DNA from: Halalkalibacterium halodurans | Lineage (GTDB): Bacteria > Bacillota > Bacilli > Bacillales > Bacillaceae_D | Assembly (NCBI RefSeq): GCF_004376175.1 | Contig: NZ_SNUY01000084.1 | Location: 1-13,321, forward strand | Length of the DNA: 13,321 nucleotides | Reading direction: 5' to 3' | Shown here: one piece after another, positions 2,444-13,321 of the stretch | Numbering within the stretch: position 1 is the stretch's first letter | How the letters are laid out: every line of letters begins with the position of its first letter | Program-made: the position numbers and the translations under genes | The notes under the pieces: generated by a model | What the model was told of the DNA's origin: nothing | The model's database searches: none | The model's input: only the letters and a program-made list of their open reading frames with translations

Positions 2444-2968
2444 TTATACTTTTTCAATTTCGATTTTCTGACTGCTGCTTAAATTCACATCCACCGCATT
2501 CAAGATGTTCTGTGTTTCCGCAAACGCCCCAATCTGTTTCCCATCCACTATCACTCGATAAAGGTCGGGCTTCGTCTCTCTCTTTTTCTTCTTCAATCCC
2601 AACGTCTTCTCCAATCCCAACACATGAGCTTCCGCAATTCGTCTCAAAAAGGCTTTGCTCTTTAACAATTTCGCATCCGCTTTATGGTCAACAAATAAAT
2701 TCTCCGTCAAGATCGCTGACATCCTCGTTTCTCTCAATACCGCAAAATTCGCTCTTTTCTTTCCTCTATCTCGAACCCCTAAATGATTCACTATCGCATG
2801 GTGCATCGAGTTCTGATACGCAACCGTTCTCTGTCCTACATTCCCATTAAAAATAAAGGACTCAAACCCCGTACCCCCTCCCGCATTACAATGAACCGAC
2901 ACAAAATAGTCAGCCTTCCACTCATTCGCCATCCTTGCTCTTTCCGTCAACACAGCAGTCGGCTCTCT
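2444..2968 (-). pseudogene. N-acetylmuramoyl-L-alanine amidase (Amidase_3, CwlC/phage-lysin type), N-terminally truncated
   Basis: LTERARMANEWKADYFVSVHCNAGGGTGFESFIF...RDRGKKRANFAVLRETRMSAILTENLFVDHKAD aligns from memory with B. subtilis CwlC starting near its residue 60 (LNDRTNAANNWGADFFLSIHVNSGGGTGFESYIY...RGKKTANFHVLRES.MPALLTENGFID). The DPGHGG/Glu zinc-ligand segment is missing. The upstream 60 codons of track ORF 2444..3148 are Ser/Ala-rich antisense of a plus-strand remnant. Confidence 0.8.
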
Positions 2969-2969
2969 T

Positions 2970-3116
2970 ATGCTTGATGAAAGTGTCGAAGAAGAGCGAG
3001 TCGAAGCTCTTGCTGAGAGCTTTGCCGAAGAAATTAAGGCGGCACACGAAGACAAAGCAGCTAATGTACAAGTTGTACAAAACAGTGAAATCGTAGCAGA
3101 TATTACGATTGAATAA
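2970..3116 (+). pseudogene. 3'-terminal stump (about 48 codons) of an unidentified plus-strand gene
   Basis: The frame ending at TAA 3114-3116 reads MLDESVEEERVEALAESFAEEIKAAHEDKAANVQVVQNSEIVADITIE. There is no RBS before the ATG at 2970, a good terminator follows immediately, and upstream of about 2965 the same DNA encodes the amidase on the other strand. Confidence 0.5.
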
Positions 3117-3120
3117 GGTA

Positions 3121-3159
3121 GAATGCGATGAGCAAAGGCTTGTCGCATTTCTTTTTTTA
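3121..3159 (+). terminator. Rho-independent terminator of the truncated upstream gene
   Basis: AATGCGA (3122-3128) pairs with TCGCATT (3143-3149), with extra inner pairs, and is followed by TCTTTTTTTA. Confidence 0.7.
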
Positions 3160-3177
3160 TTATTTGAAAATTTATTA

Positions 3178-3206
3178 TTGAAATTGTTTACGCTTACATT
3201 TATAAT
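3178..3206 (+). promoter_or_regulatory. Sigma-A promoter of the LacI-TRAP operon
   Basis: TTGAAA (3178-3183), exactly 17 nt, TATAAT (3201-3206). Confidence 0.65.
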
Positions 3207-3211
3207 ACAGA

Positions 3212-3249
3212 TAAATCGATTTAGTAAACCGGTTTAGTAAATCGATTTA
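3212..3249. promoter_or_regulatory. Three abutting 12-bp palindromic operator candidates
   Basis: TAAATCGATTTA (3212-3223), TAAACCGGTTTA (3225-3236) and TAAATCGATTTA (3238-3249) have 13-bp phasing. They sit directly after the -10 and 27 nt before the regulator start codon, and each has the central CG typical of LacI/GalR operators. Confidence 0.6.
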
Positions 3250-3275
3250 GAAGGTAGCTTTATAAAGGAGTTTTC

Positions 3276-4277
3276 ATGAAAAAGGTTACGATGGTGGATG
3301 TCGCCAAAGAAGCGAATGTATCCAAAAGCACAGTCTCTCAGTACATTAACAAACGTTATGACTATATGAGTGTAGAGACGAAAAAGAGAATTAAAGAAGC
3401 GATCGAAAAACTTGGGTATCAGCCGAACTACATAGCTAAAAGCCTTAAGCAGAAGAAGACATCAACAATCGGTGTCATTGTCGCAAATATTCTTCATTCC
3501 TTTTCTACTCAAGTCATCCGAGCCGTTGAAGATTACTGCCATGAACATGATTTTCATGTCATTGTTTGTAATGCTGATGATGATCCTGAAAAGGAAAAGA
3601 AGTATGTCGAGATGTTGCAAGCTAAGCAAGTAGACGGGTTAATTGTTTTCCCAACTGGAGGCAATGTCGAGCTTTTTCAGCAGATGGTCGAGCAAAATTT
3701 CCCGCTTGTGTTTGTAGATAGAAGAATTGAAGGCTTAGACGTACCTAGTATTCTACTCGACAACAAAAAAGCAATAACTCTTGCAGTAGAACATTTGCTT
3801 GAGAGGAACTATAAACGGATTGGCATTATTACACCTTCCTTAATTCGTAAGATTACACCTCGTATCGAACGGGTTCAAGGCTATAAGGATGCCTTAGAAA
3901 AACACGGATTAGAACTAAATGAACAATACATGAAAAGTGTAGATGTTCCTCTTATGAAAGATACAGTAAAAGAGATGTTAGAACTTCCTGAGCCTCCTGA
4001 TGCACTATTAGCAGGGAATGATTTAGCGTTGATGGAAGTCTTGAAATTAGTGAAAGAAGAAAGCCTCGATGTTCCTAGTAAGCTAGCAATCGTAGGCGTT
4101 GATGATGTTTCTTTTGCAAGCCTTTTCAATCCTTCGCTGACAACGATTGCACAGCCTGCTTTTGAAATGGGTACAGACGCAGCGGAACGATTATTGAACA
4201 GAATTAAAGGCTCTCCTGTAGAGCACAGCTGTGTAACGTACTATGAACCCGTTCTACGCAAGAGACAATCTAGTTAA
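3276..4277 (+). CDS. LacI/GalR-family transcriptional repressor
   Basis: 333 aa. N-terminal HTH VTMVDVAKEANVSKSTVSQYIN...KRIKEAIEKLGYQPNYIAKSLK, then a periplasmic-binding-protein-like sugar-binding core. RBS AAAGGAG. Confidence 0.92.
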   Translation: MKKVTMVDVAKEANVSKSTVSQYINKRYDYMSVETKKRIKEAIEKLGYQPNYIAKSLKQKKTSTIGVIVANILHSFSTQVIRAVEDYCHEHDFHVIVCNADDDPEKEKKYVEMLQAKQVDGLIVFPTGGNVELFQQMVEQNFPLVFVDRRIEGLDVPSILLDNKKAITLAVEHLLERNYKRIGIITPSLIRKITPRIERVQGYKDALEKHGLELNEQYMKSVDVPLMKDTVKEMLELPEPPDALLAGNDLALMEVLKLVKEESLDVPSKLAIVGVDDVSFASLFNPSLTTIAQPAFEMGTDAAERLLNRIKGSPVEHSCVTYYEPVLRKRQSS

Positions 4278-4302
4278 AACAAAATAAGTAGATGGGAGAG
4301 CG

Positions 4303-5259
4303 ATGATGAGAAAAGATGTTATAACAATTGGCGATGCCATGATTACATTTAATCCAGCAACGACCGGCCCAATGAGGTTTGTCCAAAGCTTTGAGCGAAA
4401 GGTTGGCGGAGCAGAGCTGAACTTTGCTCTAGGATGTGCTCGCCTAGGCTTACAGACGGGCTGGATCTCAAGGCTCGGTGCCGATGAGTTTGGCAGATTT
4501 ATTAAAAATTTTGTACGCGGTGAAGGAATTGACATCTCTGAAGTAGAGCTAGTAGAAGGATGCCCGACTTCACTGAATTTTAAAGAGATTAGAGAAGACG
4601 GCTCAGGAACGACTCATTATTACCGTTATAATTCACCAACCCAAGTCCTGACAGAAGACACGTTAAATGAAGACTATATTAAAAACAGTAAAGTCCTTCA
4701 TGTCACTGGGGTATTCGCAGCGATTGATAAAAAGAATCCAGGCACCTTGCTTGAAGCAGTGAAGCTTGCAAAAAAGCACGGCGTTACGGTTTCATTTGAT
4801 CCAAACTTGCGCTTGAAGCTGTGGACGATTGAAGAAGCGAAAGCTGCTTTTCATTCGATTCTTCCTTATGTAGATATTATCTTATCTGGAGTTGAAGAAG
4901 CAGAACTGCTTTACGGCGAGAAATCAATAGACGAGTATATTGATATTTTCAAAGAATACGGGATTAGAGACATTATCCTGAAACGCGGAGCAGAAGGTTC
5001 AGTCGGCTACCGCGATGGCGAGCTGATTTATGCTGATCCTGTAAAACCTAAAGTGGTCGTCGATACAGTAGGCGCAGGAGATGGATTTAGCGCCGGCTAC
5101 ATTTATTCTTACTTAAATGGAAGCGCTCTCTGTGAATCGCTCGCATTTGCAAACTTAATCGGTTCGATGGTTGTAAGTGTTCAAGGGGATAATGAAGGGC
5201 TGCCTTATCTTGATGATGTGATGGTAAGGCTCGGTAAGAAAGAAGAAGTGGAAAGGTAG
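4303..5259 (+). CDS. PfkB-family sugar-acid kinase, 2-dehydro-3-deoxygluconokinase (KdgK)-like
   Basis: 318 aa. N-terminal GGAELNFALGCARLG, C-terminal VDTVGAGDGFSAGY (PfkB signature 2, the GAGD anion hole), and overall similarity to B. subtilis KdgK as I remember it. The substrate is not assignable from sequence alone. Confidence 0.85.
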   Translation: MMRKDVITIGDAMITFNPATTGPMRFVQSFERKVGGAELNFALGCARLGLQTGWISRLGADEFGRFIKNFVRGEGIDISEVELVEGCPTSLNFKEIREDGSGTTHYYRYNSPTQVLTEDTLNEDYIKNSKVLHVTGVFAAIDKKNPGTLLEAVKLAKKHGVTVSFDPNLRLKLWTIEEAKAAFHSILPYVDIILSGVEEAELLYGEKSIDEYIDIFKEYGIRDIILKRGAEGSVGYRDGELIYADPVKPKVVVDTVGAGDGFSAGYIYSYLNGSALCESLAFANLIGSMVVSVQGDNEGLPYLDDVMVRLGKKEEVER

Positions 5260-5268
5260 GCGGGTAAC

Positions 5269-5898
5269 ATGAAGCTGCAGCTTGCCCTAGATCGTTTAAC
5301 AAAAGAGGAATGCACAGACATTCTTAAAGAAACGCAATCAGCAATTGATTTTATTGAAGTTGGAACGGGCGTGATTAAAGAATACGGCACCTCAATTATA
5401 AAAGAAATGAAGCAGTCGTACCCTAAACACATTATTGTAGCAGATATGAAAACATGTGATGCAGGGAAGGCTGAAGCAGTGCAGGCATTTGAAGCAGGTG
5501 CCGATATCACAACGGTTATGGCATTTGCCCATGATGCGACGATCCGAGACATGGTCGAGGTAGCGAAGAGTTATCAAAAGCGAGTAATGGTTGACCTCTT
5601 AGGGGTCGATAGCAAAGAGAGAATACATGAGCTTAAAGAATTAGGTGTTGATTTAGTTAGTCTCCACATCGGCAAAGATATGCAAGGGGATGGAAAGGCT
5701 GCCACAGCAGAGCTTTTCAGCTTACTTGAAGAGGTAAGAGCGGAGATGGAAGTGTCAGTGGCAGGTGGAATTAATGAAGAATCACTGCCGCAATTCCTTC
5801 AACACTCACCAGATATCTTAATTGTCGGCAGTGCGATCACGAAGGCAGATGATAAAGCCTCTGTTGCCCAGAAAATGAAGGAGATGATTTTAACTTGA
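5269..5898 (+). CDS. hxlA: 3-hexulose-6-phosphate synthase-like / 3-keto-L-gulonate-6-P decarboxylase-fold enzyme (OMPDC suprafamily)
   Basis: 209 aa. MKLQLALD start, IEVGT, the DxKxxD motif ADMKTCD, and LHIGKDMQ. These resemble B. subtilis HxlA (LADMKTMD, VHAGYDLQ) more than E. coli UlaD. The symbol denotes homology only. Confidence 0.8.
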   Translation: MKLQLALDRLTKEECTDILKETQSAIDFIEVGTGVIKEYGTSIIKEMKQSYPKHIIVADMKTCDAGKAEAVQAFEAGADITTVMAFAHDATIRDMVEVAKSYQKRVMVDLLGVDSKERIHELKELGVDLVSLHIGKDMQGDGKAATAELFSLLEEVRAEMEVSVAGGINEESLPQFLQHSPDILIVGSAITKADDKASVAQKMKEMILT

Positions 5899-6443
5899 AA
5901 ACGACACTGAATACAGTAGCGAAAGAAGTAAATGAAGTCCTTCAACAGGTTAAAGAAGATCAAGCGATTGACCTCTCAAAAGCGCTCCTGCAGGCTAAAC
6001 GGATTTTCGTTTTAGGAGAAGGGCGTTCTGGACTAATGGGCAAGGCCTTTGCGATGAGGCTGATGCATGCAGGGTTTCATGTTTACGCAGTAGGGGAGAC
6101 AATCACACCAAGCATCCAGAAAGATGATCTGCTAGTAGCCATCTCAGGATCAGGCACCACAGGATCGATCGTTCAATTTGCAAAGAAAGCCAAAGAGGCA
6201 GGGGCTGAGGTTGCAGGAGTAACAACAGATGCCGCGTCTCCATTAGCAGAAGTGAGCAGCAATATGCTAATCATCCCAGCAGCAACGAAATACAGAAGAG
6301 AAACAGAGCCGGATACGATCCAGCCGCTCGGCAATCAATTTGATCAAAGTCTACATTTACTTCTAGATGCTATCATCATCTACACCGTGAAAGAAACAAG
6401 CAGCCATGAAGAGATGAAAAACAGGCATGCCAACTTAGAGTAA
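5895..6443 (+). CDS. hxlB: 6-phospho-3-hexuloisomerase-like SIS-domain isomerase
   Basis: 182 aa. SIS motif VLGEGRSGLMGKAFAMRL...ISGSGTT, the size typical of PHI, and a TTG start overlapping the preceding stop by 4 nt (TTGA), which suggests translational coupling. Confidence 0.8.
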   Translation: MKTTLNTVAKEVNEVLQQVKEDQAIDLSKALLQAKRIFVLGEGRSGLMGKAFAMRLMHAGFHVYAVGETITPSIQKDDLLVAISGSGTTGSIVQFAKKAKEAGAEVAGVTTDAASPLAEVSSNMLIIPAATKYRRETEPDTIQPLGNQFDQSLHLLLDAIIIYTVKETSSHEEMKNRHANLE

Positions 6444-6458
6444 GGGAGAGAATCATAA

Positions 6459-7469
6459 ATGACCGATATTAAAGTATCACAAGAAAAGCTTAAAGAGTTA
6501 GTTGTAAATAAATTAACGGATGCATCACTTGTAAGGGAACATGCTGAAATTGTAGCAGACGTTTTAATTCATGCCGATATGCGCGGCGTTAGTTCACACG
6601 GAGTTCTTCGTACAGAGCATTATGTAAAACGCTTAAATGAAGGCGGAATGAACCCGAATCCTGAGTTTAAAGTAACAGAAACAGGTCCATGTTCAGCGAT
6701 CTTTGATGGAGATGACGGCATGGGGCACGTGGTAACAAAAGAAGCGATGGATGTTTCGATTGAAATGGCTAAAAAGAACGGAATCGGAATGGTTGGAATC
6801 ACTAACAGCAGCCACTGCGGAGCTCTTTCATACTTTGTGCAGCAAGCAGCGGAACACAACCTGGTAGGTATGGCACTCACTCATACAGATAGTATCGTCG
6901 TTCCTTTTGGCGGGGCAAAGCCTTACTACGGTACAAACCCGATTGCTTATGGTTTCCCAGCTCGTAAAAATAAGCCAGTCATCCTTGACATGGCAACAAG
7001 CAACGTAGCATTTGGAAAGGTACTGCATGCTCGTGAAGCAGGCGGAGAGATTCCAAGTGACTGGGGCGTAGATGAAAAAGGGCAGCCAACGACAAACCCT
7101 CATGATGTTTCATACTTACTGCCTTTTGCAGGACCTAAAGGATACGGACTTGGCATGGTTGTCGATATTATGTCTGGAATTATGACGGGTTCAAGCTTCG
7201 GTCCTAATATTGCCAAAATGTACGGCGACTACGATAAAAAACGTAAGCTAGGACACTTTATCTTTACGATCAATCCTGCGATGTTTACAAATATCGATGA
7301 CTTCTTAGACTCAATGGACCAAATGATTGATGAAATTCACCAAGTAGAACCGGCTGAAGGATTTGACAAAGTATTAGTTCCAGGAGAACCTGAGCAGTTA
7401 AAAGAAGAGGTTGCTTTAACTGAAGGCGTGCCTGTTACTAAATCGGTTTATGAATATTTAGCTAACTAA
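6459..7469 (+). CDS. Ldh_2-family (type-2 malate/L-lactate dehydrogenase; YiaK/YjmC/AllD-like) oxidoreductase
   Basis: 336 aa. [32 protein letters not shown] and [10 protein letters not shown] are hallmark Ldh_2 blocks. Confidence 0.88.
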
Positions 7470-7483
7470 TTTAATGGTTGCAA

Positions 7484-7500
7484 ACGGTTACGATAACCGT
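7484..7500. promoter_or_regulatory. Intra-operon 17-bp palindrome
   Basis: ACGGTTA-cga-TAACCGT lies in the 61-nt gap between the Ldh_2 and SBP genes, with no U-tract after it. It overlaps a cre/LacI-operator-like TGCAAACGGTTACG (7479-7492). Confidence 0.4.
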
Positions 7501-7530
7501 ACACAAATACACATTTAGGGGGATATACAC

Positions 7531-8553
7531 ATGAAAAAGCTTAAAGGGTTAGTGATTGGATCGGCATTACTTATGATGCTTGCTGCTTGTGGCGGAGGAG
7601 ATACGGAAACAACAGCCGACGGTGTAGAAGAAAATACTGCATCTGGTGAAACAATTAACTGGAGAATGGGTCACTTAGCTGCTGAAGATCACATTTGGCA
7701 CCAAACAGCTGAGAAATTTGCAGAGCTTGTTAGTGAGAAAACAGAAGGTCAAATTGATATTTCAATCTATCCGAACAACCAGCTTGGCGGGGAAACAGAA
7801 GTATTAAATAGTGTGAAGGGCGGAAACGTTGACCTTCTTATCACTGGTGAAACGATGCAAAACTGGGCACCAAAAGCAGCGCTTTTAGCGGTACCATATG
7901 CGTTCCGTGATTCAGATCACTTAAAAGCAGTTGTTGAAGGGGAGATCGGACGCGAAATTGAAGAGGAAATCGTAGAAAAAGTGGGCGTTACACCTTTATT
8001 CCACATGGAACGTGCACCTCGTAACTTAACATCAAATGAGCCGATCAGCACACCTGAAGATTTAAGCGGTTTCAGAATGCGTGTACCTAACGTTCCTTTA
8101 TTCATGGATTCTTGGAGTGCAGCTGGTGCGAGCCCGCAAGTAATGGACTTTAATGAGGTATTTACTGGACTACAGCAAGGTGTAATCCACGGTCAAGAAA
8201 ACCCAGTTGACCTTATTCACAGCGGCGGTCTTTATGAAGTACAACAATATGTAAACGAAACAGAGCATGTGTACTCTTGGATTTATGTAGTAGTAGGTAA
8301 CTCTCAATTCGAAGCGTTAAGTGAAGACCTGCAGCAAGCAGTAATGGAAGCAGCTGAAGAAGCTAAAGTGTTTGGTGATGAGCTGTTCGTTGAAGAAATT
8401 CAAAATTACCGTGACACTCTTGAAGAAGAAGGCATGACATTTAATAGTGATGTTGACCAAGATGCGTTCCGTGAAGCAATGGAGCCAGCGATTGAAAGTG
8501 CATTAACAGAAGAGCAATTTGAGCTTTATCAGCAAATTTTAGAAGTTCAATAA
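7531..8553 (+). CDS. TRAP transporter solute-binding protein (DctP family), lipoprotein
   Basis: 340 aa. Signal peptide with lipobox MMLAAC (Cys20), and DctP-type blocks (QLGGETE, VPYAFRD, ERAPRNLT, LSGFRMRVP, ENPV). Confidence 0.92.
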   Translation: MKKLKGLVIGSALLMMLAACGGGDTETTADGVEENTASGETINWRMGHLAAEDHIWHQTAEKFAELVSEKTEGQIDISIYPNNQLGGETEVLNSVKGGNVDLLITGETMQNWAPKAALLAVPYAFRDSDHLKAVVEGEIGREIEEEIVEKVGVTPLFHMERAPRNLTSNEPISTPEDLSGFRMRVPNVPLFMDSWSAAGASPQVMDFNEVFTGLQQGVIHGQENPVDLIHSGGLYEVQQYVNETEHVYSWIYVVVGNSQFEALSEDLQQAVMEAAEEAKVFGDELFVEEIQNYRDTLEEEGMTFNSDVDQDAFREAMEPAIESALTEEQFELYQQILEVQ

Positions 8554-8561
8554 GGAATTCT

Positions 8562-8598
8562 AATAAGACGTATCAACTAGACGTTGGTACGTCTTATT
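8562..8598 (+). other. Stable hairpin after the SBP gene (mRNA stabiliser or partial attenuator)
   Basis: AATAAGACGTA (8562-8572) pairs perfectly with TACGTCTTATT (8588-8598) across a 15-nt loop. Only TTCT follows. Confidence 0.5.
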
Positions 8599-8611
8599 TC
8601 TAAGAAAGGCG

Positions 8612-9097
8612 ATGAGAAATGTGAGACCGCTAAAACTTTTAGATCGAACGCTAGAAGTCTTAACTGCCCTATGTTTTATCGGTATTATTGTCGTTGTAAC
8701 TATGCAGATATCTACTAGATTCCTACCTTTTTCAGCTGTTTGGACAGAAGAGTTAACACGTTATTTATTTATATTCGCGGTATCTTTTGGAGCACCGCTT
8801 GCGATGAAACGTCAAGAATTTATTAGTATCGATTTCATTTTGAATGCAATACCGGAGAGGTTCCGGAATTATTATACAGCGTTTACTCAACTTCTAGTCA
8901 TTGTGATGTGTTCCTACATTGCCTATTACGGCTACTACTTTATGCTGCTTGGTCAAGGGCAGCGTTCAGCTACGATGGCGATTGAAATGTCATGGATTCA
9001 TGCAAGCATCGGTTTATCCATGCTGCTTGTAGGAGTGTATGCGATTATCAGTATCGTTGATTTATTTGTTAGAAGGAAGCGAGGCGAACAAGCATGA
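8612..9097 (+). CDS. TRAP transporter small permease (DctQ family)
   Basis: 161 aa with four hydrophobic segments, positioned between the DctP and DctM genes. Confidence 0.88.
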   Translation: MRNVRPLKLLDRTLEVLTALCFIGIIVVVTMQISTRFLPFSAVWTEELTRYLFIFAVSFGAPLAMKRQEFISIDFILNAIPERFRNYYTAFTQLLVIVMCSYIAYYGYYFMLLGQGQRSATMAIEMSWIHASIGLSMLLVGVYAIISIVDLFVRRKRGEQA

Positions 9098-10368
9098 TGG
9101 CATTACTTTTATTCCTATCCTTCCTTGTTCTCATGTTTTTAGGAGTACCCATTGCCTTTAGTTTAGGGCTTTCAAGTTTACTTTATTTAATTATTGTGGA
9201 TGTTCCTTTGACGATTATCCCGCAGCGCATGTTCTCTGGGATTAACTCATTCGTTCTTCTATGTATCCCGGGTTTCATTCTTGCTGGGAACTTAATGAAT
9301 GCAGGGGGGATTACGGAGCGAATTATCAAATTTGCCAATGATGTAGTGGGTCATATTAGAGGAGGACTAGGTCTTGCGAATATCGGGTCCTCTATGGGGT
9401 TTGCCGGAATTTCTGGAACAGCTTTAGCGGATACAGCGAGTATTGGTTCGGTGATGATTCCAGCGATGAAAAAGCAAGGCTATGATGCACCGTATGCAGC
9501 GGCTGTTACTTCATCATCCTCTACAATTGGGCCGATCATCCCTCCATCTTTACCATTAATAATTGTTGGAACACTTGCTAGTATATCAATTGGTGATTTA
9601 TTTTTAGCTGGGGCGATTCCAGGAGTCTTACTGGGGATAGGGTTAATGATTATGGCATACTACCTATCCGTTAAGAGAGGATACCCAAAGCAAGATCGTA
9701 AGCCAATCAGTGAAATTACAAAATCGTTCTTCGGCGCATTCTGGGCGCTTTTGATGACCGTTATTATTTTATACGGAATTCTTGGCGGTTACTTTACACC
9801 GACCGAGGCATCCATAGTTGCTGTTCTTTACGCATTAGTGATCGGTTTATTTGTTTACAAAGACTTAAAGATCAAACAAGTTCCAAAAATTATTCTAGAT
9901 TCAATGATCAGCACAGCATCGATCTTAATTCTAGTAGGGTTTGCTAATTTATTTGGTTACATTCTAGTGAGTGAACAAATTCCTATTCTTGTAGCCGATA
10001 CGATTTTAGGAATTACCGAAAACCCAATCCTCGTTATTCTGTTAATTATCTTATTATTGCTATTTGTTGGAACGTTTATGGAAACCATTGCAGCACTTGT
10101 TATCTTATTCCCTGTATTACTTCCTGTAGCTGCACAAGTAGGTATGGATCCAGTTCACTTTGGAGTGGTAATGGTACTAGCATTAATCATCGGGCTGACA
10201 ACACCGCCTGTAGGAGTGTGCTTGTTTGTTGCATCAAGCATCGGAAAAGTGTCGATCTGGGATACGACAAAAGCACTCGTTCCGTTCCTATTTGTAAGTT
10301 TAGTCGTTTTACTATTAGTTGCATTTATTCCAGAACTTACGTTGTTCTTGCCAAGTTTGTTTGATTAA
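9094..10368 (+). CDS. TRAP transporter large permease (DctM family)
   Basis: 424 aa polytopic membrane protein with DctM-type blocks ([33 protein letters not shown]). Its ATG overlaps the dctQ stop by 4 nt. Confidence 0.92.
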
Positions 10369-10385
10369 TAGGAGGCGTCTTGAGG

Positions 10386-11402
10386 ATGAAAGTTGTAAAT
10401 GTTGAGGAAGCGGGTTCGATTGCAGTCATTGAAAAAGAAGTGCCTGATATCAAAGCGGCAAATGAAGTGCTGATGCGTGTCCGTATGGTAGGAATTTGCG
10501 GGTCAGATATGCATATCTATCACGGGACCAATCCATTAGCTACGTATCCACGGATTATCGGACATGAAGTGACAGGCGAAGTCGTCAAAGCGGGGGAGAG
10601 TGTGTCCCGTTTAAAAGAAGGCGATAAGGTGGTACTAGAGCCAATTGATACATGCGGCGAGTGCTATGCTTGCCGTAATGGACGAGCAAATGTGTGCGAA
10701 AAGCTTGAAGTATATGGTGTACACCGCGACGGAGGCATGCAGGAATATATGGTCGTAAACGAAGCTCACCTTCATAAAGTCGATGCATCAATACCCTTTG
10801 AAGATTCGGTATTAGTGGAGCCTTTTACGATCGGGGCACAAGCCAACTGGCGTGGAGATGTCCAAAAAGGTGATACCGTGTTAATTCAAGGAGCAGGACC
10901 GATTGGCATCTGTTGTCTAAAAGTAGCAAATCTGCTTGGAGCCACATGCTTTATCACCGATCTAAGTGAAGAACGATTAGACTTTGCCGTAAAGTGCGGA
11001 GCAGATAAAGTGATTCATGCTGGTAAAGAGGATGTAGTGGAGACGGTAATGGAAGCAACGGCTGGTGAAGGGGCCAATGTTGTCATTGATGCGGTATGTC
11101 TCCCGCAAACATTCGAATTAGGCATCCACGCAGCATCCATTGCCGGACATGTTGTGGTACTAGGGTTTGATGAGCGTCCATCAACGATCTCTCAACTTCC
11201 AATTACTAAAAAAGAATTAACGATTGTCGGATCACGTCTACAAACGAACCAATTTGAAAAAGTCATTAAGTGGATGGAAGAAAAAGAGCTGAATGTAGAT
11301 GAAATGGTCACACATACTTTCTCTATTGATGAAATTAAAGAAGCGATGTCTTTCATTGAAAACAATCCAAATGAAGTACGAAAAGCAGTAATCTCCATGT
11401 AA
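10386..11402 (+). CDS. Zn-dependent medium-chain dehydrogenase/reductase (sorbitol/idonate/YjmD-like)
   Basis: GHEVTGEV catalytic-Zn motif, structural-Zn cysteines [15 protein letters not shown], and Rossmann GAGPIG. The track starts at TTG 10380, but AGGAGG (10370-10375) is only 4 nt from that TTG and 10 nt from ATG 10386, so the ATG is preferred. Confidence 0.9.
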
Positions 11403-11411
11403 GCACGATCT

Positions 11412-11434
11412 GCCCGCCCAATTATCGGGTGGGC
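11412..11434 (+). other. GC-rich hairpin 10 nt after the dehydrogenase stop; terminator stem without a U-tract
   Basis: GCCCGCCC-aattatc-GGGTGGGC, with one G-U pair in the plus-strand RNA, is followed by TAACCCTTGG rather than Ts. Confidence 0.5.
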
Positions 11435-11659
11435 TAACCCTTGGTGCTTGCGCTCTATTTGCTCCAATCGCTTGCGCTCAATTCGTTGTAAATGCGCTTT
11501 TTTCTGCTCCATATATTCCATGTAATCGTTATCGGGTACAAACTCGCCTTGCGTGGCTTTAAACCGGCTGTAATTGCCGTTTTTTCGTCCGTCTATAATT
11601 AATGGTGCCCTATTCGGCGTTCGTGCGCTCCTGCCCGGCGTTCTCGTTACCATTCGCAT
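11435..11659 (-). pseudogene. 5' portion of an unknown basic protein gene (module gene B), 3' end lost at the junction with the operon
   Basis: Starts MRMVTRTPGRSARTPNRAPLIIDGRKNGNYSRFKATQGEFVPDNDYMEYMEQKKAHLQRIERKRLEQIERKHQG, with RBS GAGAGGGTGG 7 nt before ATG 11659. The track ORF (11192..11668) continues through the hairpin and 211 nt antisense into the dehydrogenase gene, which I read as accidental read-through. Confidence 0.5.
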
Positions 11660-11682
11660 TTTATCCACCCTCTCGCATTTAT

Positions 11683-12057
11683 TTAAACGTTGCTAAAAAA
11701 CGCCTTTTCAATAACTGCCTTGTATTCGTGTGCATGGTACGGCTCTTTTTCGTTCTCCAATAACCACGCCTCAAACATTTCTAAAATATCTCGCCATAAC
11801 TCGCCCTCACTTTTCACTGGGTACCAATTCGCATGGTGCTGTTTATTTTTGTTGTAATCCTCTATTTCCTCTTGGCTCCAAAATTCCAAATAACATAAGT
11901 GTGAAAAAATCGTGCCGGCTTTGCTGTTGTCCATTAAAAACGCCGTAAAATTTTGCTGTGCGTCCCGGCTAATATAATCGTTTAAAATCAAATCCGTTTT
12001 TTTCGGCTCTATTGATTTTTCAATTTTTAATAACCGGCTTTTAAAATTCCTTGCCAT
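11683..12057 (-). CDS. Hypothetical protein (module gene A), 124 aa
   Basis: RBS GAGAGGGTGAGGG before the ATG. Shares the N-terminus MAR(H)NFKSRLLKI.K.IEPK and an internal Y.E.W...EIE.YN block with the frameshifted copy at 12253-12665. No family recognised. Confidence 0.65.
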   Translation of the reverse strand: MARNFKSRLLKIEKSIEPKKTDLILNDYISRDAQQNFTAFLMDNSKAGTIFSHLCYLEFWSQEEIEDYNKNKQHHANWYPVKSEGELWRDILEMFEAWLLENEKEPYHAHEYKAVIEKAFFSNV

Positions 12058-12090
12058 GCCCTCACCCTCTCTAATTCATCACCACCTCGA

Positions 12091-12131
12091 AATAATGGCT
12101 TGCATGGGGTTTGTTTTAGCAAGCCATTATT
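12091..12131. repeat. Perfect 13-bp inverted repeat (hairpin) between the two module copies
   Basis: AATAATGGCTTGC (12091-12103) and GCAAGCCATTATT (12119-12131) with a 15-nt loop. There is no convincing U-tract on either strand. Confidence 0.8.
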
Positions 12132-12207
12132 TTACTCCCCTGCCCGTCATTCTCGTTACTGTTTTTACAATGCTATGTCGTTGCCCACCTTTTCTGTAAA
12201 CGCTCAT
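12127..12207 (-). pseudogene. 26-codon remnant of module gene B (copy B')
   Basis: GGGAG lies 8 nt before the ATG at 12207. The product MSVYRKGGQRHSIVKTVTRMTGRGVK and its DNA (GTAACGAGAATGACGGGCAGGGGA) match gene B (VTRTPGRS; GTAACGAGAACGCCGGGCAGGAGC). The stop lies inside the 13-bp hairpin arm. Confidence 0.35.
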
Positions 12208-12252
12208 TTTGCTTACTCCCCTTCCCATTTCTTAATTTTTTGTGTAAGCCTA

Positions 12253-12665
12253 TTACCCTCTTAACTCGTTTAAAATCTTTTCGTTAATGTGTAATAAATC
12301 ATGGTGCCCATGCTCTTTTAATAACTCGCCAAACCGCTCATACAATGCTATCGCTGTTTCTCGCTCGCTTTTTATTTCATACTTGGACGTGGTAACAACG
12401 CCGGTCTTTTGCTCGTAACGCTCCCACCGCTTACGCCCCCCATTTTTTAAATCATGGTTGTATTTCTCAATTTCCCATGGTGTCCACTTTTCGTAATAGT
12501 CCAATGTAACGTTAAAACATCGCTCATGTGGTCATTTACGGCTAAATCCGTTATAACGCTTATATAACGTTCCTCGGGGTCGTCCGGCTCTTTTAACACT
12601 GTTATTTTCGGCTCTATCGTTTTTTTAATTTTCAGTAAACGACTTTTAAAATTGTGCCTTGCCAT
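12253..12665 (-). pseudogene. Frameshifted paralogue of module gene A (copy A')
   Basis: Track ORFs 12447..12665 (MARHNFKSRLLKIKKTIEPK...) and 12253..12504 (..DYYEKWTPWEIEKYNHDL...) align with the N-terminal and central/C-terminal parts of the 124-aa protein respectively. They are in different frames, with the shift near 12500-12515. Confidence 0.55.
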
Positions 12666-12909
12666 TCGTTCGCCCCCCTTCTCCTGCTTCGTGAATTTGT
12701 TTTATTGTTTCTTCCATGTCCTCTATTTTTTCGGCTAATTCTCCCACTTCCATGGCTCTAAGAATTGTGTTTGATAATGTGGCTATGGCTCGGGCTTTTT
12801 CAATTGTCAATTCTCCGTCCTGCAATAAACCGTTTATAACTCTTGCTAACATACGCCGGACGTCTTGCGGTTTCGTTAATCTTATATCTCGCTCAAATTC
12901 ATACGCCAT
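12646..12909 (-). CDS. Hypothetical 87-aa helical protein, first gene of the minus-strand small-ORF array
   Basis: Strong RBS AGGAGGGTGG 5 nt before the ATG. Its stop overlaps the A' start (aATGGCAAGGCACAATTTTAA). Helical/coiled-coil-looking sequence (ELAEKIEDMEETIKQI). No family recognised. Confidence 0.65.
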   Translation of the reverse strand: MAYEFERDIRLTKPQDVRRMLARVINGLLQDGELTIEKARAIATLSNTILRAMEVGELAEKIEDMEETIKQIHEAGEGGRTNGKAQF

Positions 12910-12969
12910 TTACACCACCCTCCTAAAAGCCTTTAATACCAATGGTTTTCGCCGTTTTTTCATTGCAAA

Positions 12970-13022
12970 TAATATAACGGTGTATCGCAAATATGGACGC
13001 TGTTATATTACTCTTATATTAC
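12970..13022. promoter_or_regulatory. Operator-like 9-mer repeats upstream of the small-ORF array
   Basis: TAATATAAC (12970-12978) is the perfect inverse of GTTATATTA (13002-13010). TTATATTAC occurs at 13003-13011 and again at 13014-13022, 11 bp apart. Confidence 0.45.
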
Positions 13023-13056
13023 CGTAAATTACCAAATGAATAAAACATCTATTATG

Positions 13057-13159
13057 TTTTTGTATGATTTATGCCACTATCTTTTTTTGTTCGGCTTTAA
13101 ATGCTTATATATCAACTGCTTACAACGTGAACAATACAGAATGGTATTTTTGTATGATT
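13057..13159. repeat. 13-bp direct repeat pair in the AT-rich non-coding region
   Basis: TTTTTGTATGATT occurs at 13057-13069 and 13147-13159. Confidence 0.6.
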
Positions 13160-13321
13160 GAATTTGCTTAAAAAAATATACCGGGTAAAATTGTGTGGTA
13201 CCGTCAAGAATTTTGTGTAAGCTCGCAGGGTTTCCTTTGGAATTGCCAATATATTAGACCTTAAGCAGCCTTGGTGACTACACAAAAAGTTTCAGAAGGT
13301 TCTGTCAAGGGCGAAGTGTAT

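Follow-up and report, generated by a model that had tools for sequence, protein, structure and literature searches.

HPS-like and PHI-like enzymes of acid-sugar operons in Bacillota: a conserved module and a candidate decarboxylative shunt for 2-keto-aldonates

Several described systems share enzyme families with the locus analysed in this study. In the hxlR-hxlAB loci of the Bacillus subtilis group, Bacillus methanolicus and Parageobacillus thermoglucosidasius, the genes for 3-hexulose-6-phosphate synthase (HPS) and 6-phospho-3-hexuloisomerase (PHI) are adjacent and often translationally coupled, and a preprint on P. thermoglucosidasius describes HxlR-regulated hxlAB as driving formaldehyde assimilation. 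In the 3-keto-L-gulonate-6-P decarboxylase (KGPDC) routes of Escherichia coli, ulaD and yiaK-S, an orotidine 5'-monophosphate decarboxylase (OMPDC) suprafamily member acts on a 3-keto-6-phospho acid; yiaK-S comprises the Ldh_2 reductase YiaK, the tripartite ATP-independent periplasmic (TRAP) transporter YiaMNO, the kinase LyxK and SgbH. L-gulonate is catabolised in Haemophilus influenzae by the TRAP system GulPQM, the zinc dehydrogenase GulD, fructuronate reductase, UxuA, KdgK and Eda, in the order L-gulonate, fructuronate, mannonate, 2-keto-3-deoxygluconate (KDG) and its 6-phosphate (KDPG), and structure 4PBQ is the L-gulonate binder of that organism (PMC5788505). The Pseudomonas 2-ketogluconate operon has the order ptxS-kguE-kguK-kguT-kguD, with the PtxS box TGAAACCGGTTTCA (PMC11678583). 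The operon of this study lies at positions 3276-11402 of a 13,321-nucleotide contig of Halalkalibacterium halodurans (NZ_SNUY01000084.1; this whole stretch is called the window). It places an HPS-like gene (5269-5898, forward strand) and a translationally coupled PHI-like gene (5895-6443, forward strand) in an acid-sugar operon, and our analysis tentatively points to a decarboxylative role for the pair.

Comparative analysis of 92 loci, 91 related loci and the window's own contig (L092), was carried out after annotation with the operon's proteins. Neighbourhoods were obtained from exact-protein look-ups and a metagenome scan; a genome-wide scan with a single protein returned the organism's own species and two distant metagenome-assembled genomes (MAGs). 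A neighbour-joining tree rooted on KGPDC revealed two sister clades of HPS proteins across 90 loci. M. gastri HPS, whose structure is solved (3ajx), falls into the canonical clade, as do sequences that share 98% identity with Bacillus safensis HxlA. The other clade is monophyletic, is marked by lysine at position 136 (hereafter the Lys136 clade) and holds the HPS-like protein of the window, which is 38-43% identical to canonical-clade sequences. HPS-like proteins with at least about 46% identity to that of the window were always found in acid-sugar clusters, and those at or below about 45% mostly in plain HPS-PHI pairs. Among loci with enough flanking DNA, a Pfam-checked HxlR gene occurred within 3 kb in 0 of 28 Lys136-type loci, compared with 24 of 49 canonical loci. 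Nesting of the two proteins inside hxlAB, which the sequence-only reading had named as the outcome that would speak against it, was not observed; they form a sister clade associated with a KdgK-like kinase and acid-sugar transporters and never with HxlR. The pair of P. thermoglucosidasius, judged by regulation and sequence identity and not by tree placement, appears to be of the canonical type. The window pair resembles the hxlR-hxlAB pairs in its two families, their adjacency and coupling and the model cut-offs that both proteins pass, and differs from them in its LacI repressor, in the accompanying sugar-acid kinase and acid-sugar transporters, and in fixed active-site differences in both enzymes. 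When 1.84 billion representative sequences were searched, the Lys signature, assigned by eye, was present in about a dozen of the top 60 clusters at 50% identity, and the Lys136 clade is therefore real, though of moderate size. No species carrying both canonical and Lys136-type HPS was found among the best 120 matches to each, and these overlapped at the genus level alone (Neobacillus, Jeotgalibacillus).

Active-site residues were compared using a published table of structurally aligned KGPDC and HPS positions. The motifs ADMKTCD, VDLLGV and LHIGKDMQ, which the sequence-only reading had recognised as HPS-like, are present in the protein, and at the last two of them the KGPDC sequence indeed has ..LTGYW and YHRSRD. 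The HPS-like clade keeps the residues common to HPS and KGPDC (D8, E30, D59, K61, D64 and H133). The window protein has the signature G34, C63, M84, L111 and K136. At position 34 the canonical clade has proline and the window clade glycine (serine in the clusters with a major facilitator superfamily, MFS, transporter); at position 63 methionine is replaced by cysteine (M/I/F in the MFS type), at position 84 leucine by methionine and at position 111 isoleucine by leucine. Position 136 is variable in the canonical clade (Y/F/V/T/I/L) and lysine in the window clade. This lysine aligns with Arg139 of KGPDC, which is among the three residues changed in the E112D/R139V/T169A variants made to enhance the HPS activity of KGPDC. 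In the PHI-like protein, M145 is replaced by L and E150 by D (FEQ to FDQ), each conserved in 100% of one class versus 100% of the other; further changes are present in all kinase-linked classes (L154 to H, A42 to E, G83 to I and I111 to T), and N147 and Q148 are also clade-specific. The active-site residues of the two enzymes have changed together. The AlphaFold2 model of the HPS-like protein (pLDDT 94.8) is about equally close to HPS structures (Foldseek TM 0.88-0.92) and to KGPDC (0.90). Besides the basic residue at the Arg139 position, the window shares with the KGPDC routes the combination of uptake by TRAP with three kinds of enzyme: Ldh_2, a kinase and a member of the OMPDC suprafamily that would act on a 3-keto-6-phospho acid. 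Unlike those routes, the window has a PfkB and not an FGGY kinase, and a PHI-like isomerase in place of the SgbU/SgbE epimerases.

Some further relatives were also noted. Two MAG loci (L004, L005; HPS 38% identical) represent a deeper HPS-like lineage with the signature S34 and S136 ('HLPSDKK'), and in L005 this gene lies near LacI, Eda-like and PfkB-like genes, a hint that linkage to a kinase may be older than the Lys136 substitution. In two long proteins, P0363 (968 aa) and P0367 (992 aa), HPS-like domains stand two or three in tandem and are joined to domains of other kinds, a fusion that is unusual in the HPS family; the C-terminus of P0363 is SIS-like and the N-terminus of P0367 resembles aldehyde:ferredoxin oxidoreductase.

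Analysis of neighbourhoods showed that the HPS-like and PHI-like genes form a conserved module, consisting of a LacI regulator with its operator, a KdgK-like kinase and the two enzymes, with interchangeable transporters and accessory genes. When only loci of 4 kb or more are counted, the KdgK-like PfkB kinase occurs in 18 of 25 Lys136-type loci (the other seven are cut by the end of the locus) versus one of 36 canonical loci, and TRAP genes in 16 of 25 versus none of 36. The members are kept across at least four gene orders despite shuffling: LacI-PfkB-HPS-PHI-Ldh2-DctPQM-MDR(-Eda-UxuA-UxuB), where MDR is a medium-chain dehydrogenase/reductase; PHI-Ldh2-DctPQM-MDR-Eda-UxuA-UxuB-HPS, in which HPS and PHI are 8 kb apart; LacI-PfkB-HPS-PHI-DctPQM-cupin-RpiA; and LacI-PHI-Eda-DctPQM-RpiA-PfkB-HPS. 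Further variants have a CUT1 ABC transporter or, in the Paenibacillus type, the genes LacI, TIM barrel, PfkB, ACS-type MFS transporter, HPS and PHI. RpiA of the minimal clusters scores 280 against a cut-off of 192. Their neighbours are unrelated housekeeping genes, and the clusters are therefore self-contained. The TRAP binding protein of these clusters is a different one, 23-28% identical to that of the window, and its best relatives in the PDB are presumably hexuronate binders. Clusters with neither Eda nor KDG-forming enzymes were found in L009, L010, L013 and the MFS type. No formaldehyde- or methanol-generating enzyme was found in any cluster variant. Family searches gave no informative match for the TIM barrel of the MFS type, for the small cupin or for two proteins of about 550 aa encoded in the ABC variant.

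Side observations on these clusters concern individual genes. The two ABC-variant proteins, which match nothing in Pfam or NCBIfam, are encoded on either side of the LacI gene (L031, 9198-10874 and 11917-13578) and may process the imported substrate. A phosphoglucose isomerase gene located 210 nt after the HPS-like gene of an aldonate-type cluster (L016, 8834-10183) is probably the housekeeping pgi. In both Paenibacillus durus and Paenibacillus sp. 7124 the MFS-cluster kinase is represented by two paralogues, at 74-76% and 60% identity, suggesting that the module kinase may coexist with a second KdgK-like gene.

The module also appears to share its regulation. Three tandem predicted LacI-type operators, TAAATCGATTTA, TAAACCGGTTTA and TAAATCGATTTA, are spaced 13 bp apart at 3212-3249 on the forward strand, directly downstream of the -10 box, and the operon is predicted to be repressed by its own LacI-type regulator at these sites over the transcription start. 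The full palindrome is CTAAACCGGTTTAG. Searched as TAAAYCGRTTTA, it gave four matches in the window versus 0.00 expected and was found in 17 of the 92 loci, all of them with a Lys136-type HPS; in L080 the shared operator stands directly in front of the HPS gene. LacI orthologues in most module variants are 49-72% identical (35% in L065). The shared operator would thus define a regulon of repressor and operator, kinase, HPS-like and PHI-like enzymes. The fourth match in the window, TAAATCGGTTTA at 7439-7450, was rejected as a regulatory part: it lies in the final codons of the Ldh_2 gene (VTKSVY), is kept in the sister strains described below and in L006 but not in L008 or L011, and may therefore be coincidental. 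The operator core AAACCGGTTT is the core of the 2-ketogluconate-responsive PtxS box. The MFS-type variants also mirror the Pseudomonas kgu operon in the order LacI, TIM-barrel protein, PfkB kinase and acid-sugar MFS transporter; they carry the HPS-like and PHI-like genes in place of the KguD reductase, no KguD-like gene is found in the clusters, and the window uses TRAP and not MFS. These gene-order and operator-core parallels are taken as leads only and not as tests.

Most other genes of the operon match a known route. The closest HPS homologue is from Alkalihalophilus marmarensis, and three genomes of this species (L001-L003, the sister strains) share about 95% DNA identity with the window over the segment that aligns. 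In all three, eda-uxuA-uxuB directly follow the MDR gene, and their products exceed the NCBIfam cut-offs for KHG/KDPG aldolase (263 versus 238), UxuA (508 versus 191) and D-mannonate oxidoreductase (448 versus 281); the genes are missing from the window contig. The window has the first nine of the twelve genes of an operon for aldonate catabolism, read here as that of an Alkalihalophilus marmarensis strain. The sequence-only reading had noted that a dehydratase and a KDPG aldolase are lacking, which is correct for the window; as a design feature of the system the absence does not stand, because the operon is truncated in the window strain. All six components of the L-gulonate pathway (transporter, aldonate 5-dehydrogenase, mannonate oxidoreductase, UxuA, KDG kinase and KDPG aldolase) are encoded in L001-L003. 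The TRAP system, RspB-like MDR, kinase, UxuA, UxuB and Eda, to judge by their families, would reproduce the known conversion of L-gulonate or D-mannonate through KDG and KDPG to pyruvate and glyceraldehyde 3-phosphate. The proposal of a single, self-contained novel pathway is consequently not borne out, as most genes are explained by the known pathway once eda-uxuA-uxuB are restored; the genes that would remain unexplained are those for Ldh_2, HPS-like and PHI-like proteins. The window resembles the H. influenzae pathway in its aldonate-type TRAP binding protein, RspB-like zinc MDR and KdgK-like kinase, and the sister strains resemble it further in the mannonate oxidoreductase, UxuA and KDPG aldolase. 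Compared with that pathway, and with the E. coli RspAB-type clusters considered alongside, the window adds the Ldh_2 gene and the HPS-like/PHI-like pair, has a LacI regulator with its own operator and is without the last three genes.

The DctP-type binding protein (7531-8553) scores 230 on TIGR00787 (cut-off 175), and the lipobox Cys20 predicted earlier is present and invariant. Its carboxylate-binding arginines R164 and R184 are invariant and align with 'gtRqtT' and 'klRVPN' of SiaP, and such arginines are kept in both TRAP binding-protein types of the module. Its best structural relatives are 4pc9/4pcd (E 4e-91), presumably D-mannonate and L-galactonate complexes; the L-gulonate binder 4pbq follows at E 1e-40. 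The zinc-dependent MDR dehydrogenase (10380-11402) has E. coli RspB (4ilk) as its best PDB relative, at 256 bits, and its true start is likely the ATG at 10386, as annotated in the sister strains. The PfkB kinase of KdgK/IolC type (4303-5259) is under every NCBIfam cut-off (best models 221 and 132 bits, each against 400), and its best PDB relatives are the KDG kinases 1v19, 2v78 and 1wye; UxuA and Eda accompany it in the sister strains and are absent from minimal clusters. The Ldh_2 2-hydroxyacid dehydrogenase (6459-7469) is above the cut-off of one model for ureidoglycolate dehydrogenase (AllD), NF011599 (422 versus 356), and below that of another, TIGR03175 (413 versus 496). Its best PDB match is AllD (339 bits), YiaK being distant (102 bits), and no allantoin genes were found in any neighbourhood of the collected loci. 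The Ldh_2 gene adjoins the PHI-like gene in all aldonate-type clusters. In the hexuronate locus of B. subtilis, which contains yjmC (Ldh_2), yjmD (zinc MDR), uxuA and yjmF (short-chain dehydrogenase), yjmC likewise has no known role. The same four enzyme families are clustered there in a Bacillaceae acid-sugar operon, which is not known to include an HPS/PHI-like pair, a TRAP system or a PfkB kinase.

On these grounds we consider it a serious possibility, somewhat short of an even chance, that the HPS/PHI module operates a redox-neutral, decarboxylative shunt for 2-keto-aldonates. The best candidate substrate, 2-keto-D-gluconate or D-arabino-hex-2-ulosonate, corresponds exactly to fructose with a carboxylate at C1. 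The kinase would phosphorylate the 2-keto-aldonate at C6, the PHI-like isomerase would shift the carbonyl from C2 to C3, and the HPS-like enzyme, by the Mg2+/Lys enediolate chemistry common to HPS and KGPDC, would release C1 as CO2 to give ribulose-5-phosphate, which RpiA would take onward in minimal clusters. The 2-keto acid would be made in aldonate-type clusters by Ldh_2, through oxidation at C2 of an imported or derived aldonate, e.g. D-mannonate, and in the window operon part of the flux would branch to pentose phosphate while the remainder passes through UxuA, KDG and Eda. The module would thus be a toolkit for a carboxylate imported by TRAP, MFS or ABC systems, made of a C6-kinase, a 2,3-ketol isomerase homologue, an enediolate-forming lyase or decarboxylase homologue and often RpiA. 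Somewhat less probable is the wider claim that a large clade of Bacillota proteins, all annotated as HPS and PHI, consists of 3-keto-6-phosphoaldonate decarboxylases and 2-keto/3-keto-6-phosphoaldonate isomerases that, with the kinase, would convert 2-ketogluconate-type acids to ribulose-5-phosphate and CO2 independently of cofactors. The stoichiometry would suit the cluster types: substrates of formula C6H10O7 would yield a pentulose and CO2 without redox chemistry, and RpiA clusters carry no dehydrogenase. Aldonate-type binding proteins, conversely, pair with the added Ldh_2 and MDR, and the dehydrogenase-free clusters with proteins that we take to be hexuronate-binder-like. The RpiA linkage in minimal clusters fits a ribulose-5-phosphate product and implies, in comparison with the KGPDC routes, the D-series. 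Two further substrates were rejected for the HPS/PHI pair: KDPG is without the C3 hydroxyl needed for the 2,3-enediol shift, and with hexuronates as direct substrates the carbonyl would need to migrate over three carbons. The route had been put forward as undescribed, and full-text searches, with most subscription journals outside their coverage, returned no published description of it.

Several results weigh against the shunt. The HPS-like protein scores 262.3 bits on the HxlA model TIGR03128 (cut-off 200) and the PHI-like protein 236.8 bits on the HxlB model TIGR03127 (cut-off 160), and it is because these NCBIfam cut-offs are passed that databases name the two proteins HxlA and HxlB; the HPS-like protein reaches only 139 bits on the KGPDC model (cut-off 250). 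Its Asp109, Ala165 and Ser188 are of HPS type, as against Glu112, Thr169 and Arg192 of KGPDC, where Thr169 is the one unique signature residue of that enzyme. With the distal genes restored, the kinase may simply be KdgK of the full operon; it is nearest to KDG kinases, is needed as such there, and may be unrelated to the HPS/PHI pair. Eda is present in about half of the module variants. The MFS-cluster kinase is not identified as KguK, since a homologue search gave for it nothing but Bacillales sugar or KDG kinases with generic names; the parallel with kgu remains one of architecture, made up of gene order and operator core, and the latter similarity may be generic to LacI-family sites.

Among the alternatives, the one that survives best, and which we judge unlikely, keeps the decarboxylase logic and changes the substrate. 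An L-series or other keto acid would be used, e.g. L-gulonate through 2-keto-L-gulonate, its 6-phosphate and 3-keto-L-gulonate-6-phosphate to L-xylulose-5-phosphate, or the HPS-like enzyme would cleave a leaving group other than CO2. Oxidation of L-gulonate would give the Ldh_2 enzyme a task in what would be a KGPDC-type route with a new entry, in keeping with a binding protein related to the L-gulonate binder 4pbq and an RspB-like MDR. YiaK, which acts in the 2,3-diketo-L-gulonate route, is also a member of the Ldh_2 family, but that enzyme is far less similar to the window protein than AllD is. The MFS-type clusters carry a TIM barrel of AP_endonuc_2 type, the fold family of the UlaE/SgbU epimerases, yet UlaE/UlaF-type epimerases themselves were found neither in the window nor in the sister operons. 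The G34 and C63 substitutions would enlarge the pocket, as such a substrate change might use, whereas the RpiA linkage points to D-ribulose-5-phosphate.

More doubtful is the reading that the two proteins are true HPS and PHI that fix or detoxify formaldehyde, recruited because the substrates release a C1 unit (e.g. O-methylated or methyl-esterified uronates), with RpiA supplying ribulose-5-phosphate. The curated HxlA and HxlB cut-offs, the retention of all catalytic residues common to HPS, including D109 and A165, and solved HPS structures as the best sequence and fold matches all favour it, and RpiA is also a ribulose monophosphate (RuMP) cycle enzyme. However, the cluster variants lack any source of formaldehyde or methanol and HxlR is confined to the canonical loci of the comparison above; compared with the functional canonical clade, different residues are fixed at five active-site positions in HPS and at least eight in PHI; and, on chemical grounds, beta-elimination from O-methyl sugars yields methanol, not formaldehyde.

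Equally doubtful is the absence of any functional link, in which an ordinary L-gulonate/mannonate/KDG operon with KdgK and a KdgR-like repressor carries HPS and PHI as passengers, or as a reverse RuMP pathway from fructose 6-phosphate to ribulose-5-phosphate for the supply of pentose phosphates: the full KDG route of the sister strains, the KDG-kinase relatives of the kinase and the Eda found with many variants agree with it, but module membership is conserved through repeated shuffling and four transporter types, self-contained clusters do without Eda and KDG-forming enzymes, the operator precedes HPS itself in L080, both active sites changed together, and reverse RuMP would release toxic formaldehyde in Bacillaceae that have a non-oxidative pentose phosphate pathway.

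The boundaries of the segment were located by blastn against the three sister genomes, where alignment is confined to 2950-11434. The window amounts to essentially an entire contig of 13 kb with an assembly of its own. The right break at 11434 is 32 nt past the MDR gene, directly after a GC-rich hairpin, GCCCGCCC-aattatc-GGGTGGGC (11412-11434, forward strand, 10-32 nt beyond the MDR stop codon), and it is owing to this break that the window strain lacks the last three of twelve operon genes. At the left breakpoint, 2950, a phage endolysin gene (2444 to about 2950) is cut exactly; it has a PHROG endolysin match and an Amidase_3 match beginning at profile position 55. The prophage remnant to which it belongs further includes, to its left, a Fic/Doc toxin (818-1219), a MazE/AbrB antitoxin (1252-1542) and a truncated integrase (1669-2220). 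The 8.5-kb operon segment is bracketed by DNA (1-2950 and 11435-13321) absent from the three sister genomes. A strain-specific rearrangement split eda-uxuA-uxuB from the operon, with prophage debris on at least the left side. The right flank has three or four small minus-strand open reading frames without match to Pfam, PHROG or phage DNA. A phage origin of both flanks was rejected, the right having no phage matches and the phage-DNA matches of the left being short integrase ones; a plasmid origin was rejected as well, since megablast of the operon against PLSDB gave no match.

The anatomy described by the sequence-only reading was confirmed. The positions of open reading frames agree with nine forward-strand genes, which besides those given above are the LacI-family repressor (3276-4277), DctQ, the small TRAP permease (8612-9097), and DctM, the large permease (9094-10368), and Pfam agrees with every domain call (LacI, PfkB, OMPdecase, SIS, Ldh_2, DctP, DctQ, DctM and zinc MDR). 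The genes are separated by gaps of 25, 9, 15, 61, 58 and 11 nt, except that HPS/PHI and DctQ/DctM overlap by 4 nt each. The sigma-70-type promoter at 3178-3206, TTGAAA-17 nt-TATAAT, matches 11 of 12 positions and is the sole strong forward-strand candidate. No convincing terminator was found within the operon, where terminator-like structures number 7 versus 7.7 in shuffled sequences, in agreement with the earlier description. Upstream, a terminator-like hairpin at 3121-3150 on the forward strand, with a 13-pair stem followed by the T-run CTTTTTTTAT, closes the truncated upstream gene and would insulate the operon. A cre-like element, TGCAAACGGTTACG (7479-7492, forward strand), in the Ldh_2-dctP spacer is conserved in L006 and L008 and is a possible CcpA site for catabolite repression inside the operon. 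The dctP-dctQ spacer contains a hairpin, AGACGTTGGTACGTCT, at 8579-8594; hairpins in such spacers often raise the binding-protein mRNA relative to the permease genes.

Overall, we rate the finding as a functional subfamily pair and a module, analogous to and distinct from hxlAB, ula/yiaK-S and kgu, within an otherwise known L-gulonate/mannonate operon. Should the chemistry turn out to be different, the regulon, with its operator, its repressor, the kinase and the pair of enzymes, is still a clearly bounded target that can be tested directly. If the shunt is true, the OMPDC suprafamily, a textbook example of how enzymes diverge in evolution, would gain a third natural reaction type, lying between HPS and KGPDC, and a SIS isomerase would acquire a new function. 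Many Bacillaceae and Paenibacillaceae genomes would turn out to be systematically misannotated with HxlA and HxlB, and with them as having capacity for formaldehyde detoxification or RuMP, a correction that bears on metabolic models and on claims of latent methylotrophy. The shunt would also mean that oxidised sugars, which are plentiful wherever glucose undergoes extracellular oxidation, have a new catabolic entry into the pentose phosphate pool, in the form of a redox-neutral bypass of KguD and 6-phosphogluconate dehydrogenase that is plugged into varied acid-sugar uptake systems under one LacI-type repressor and operator.

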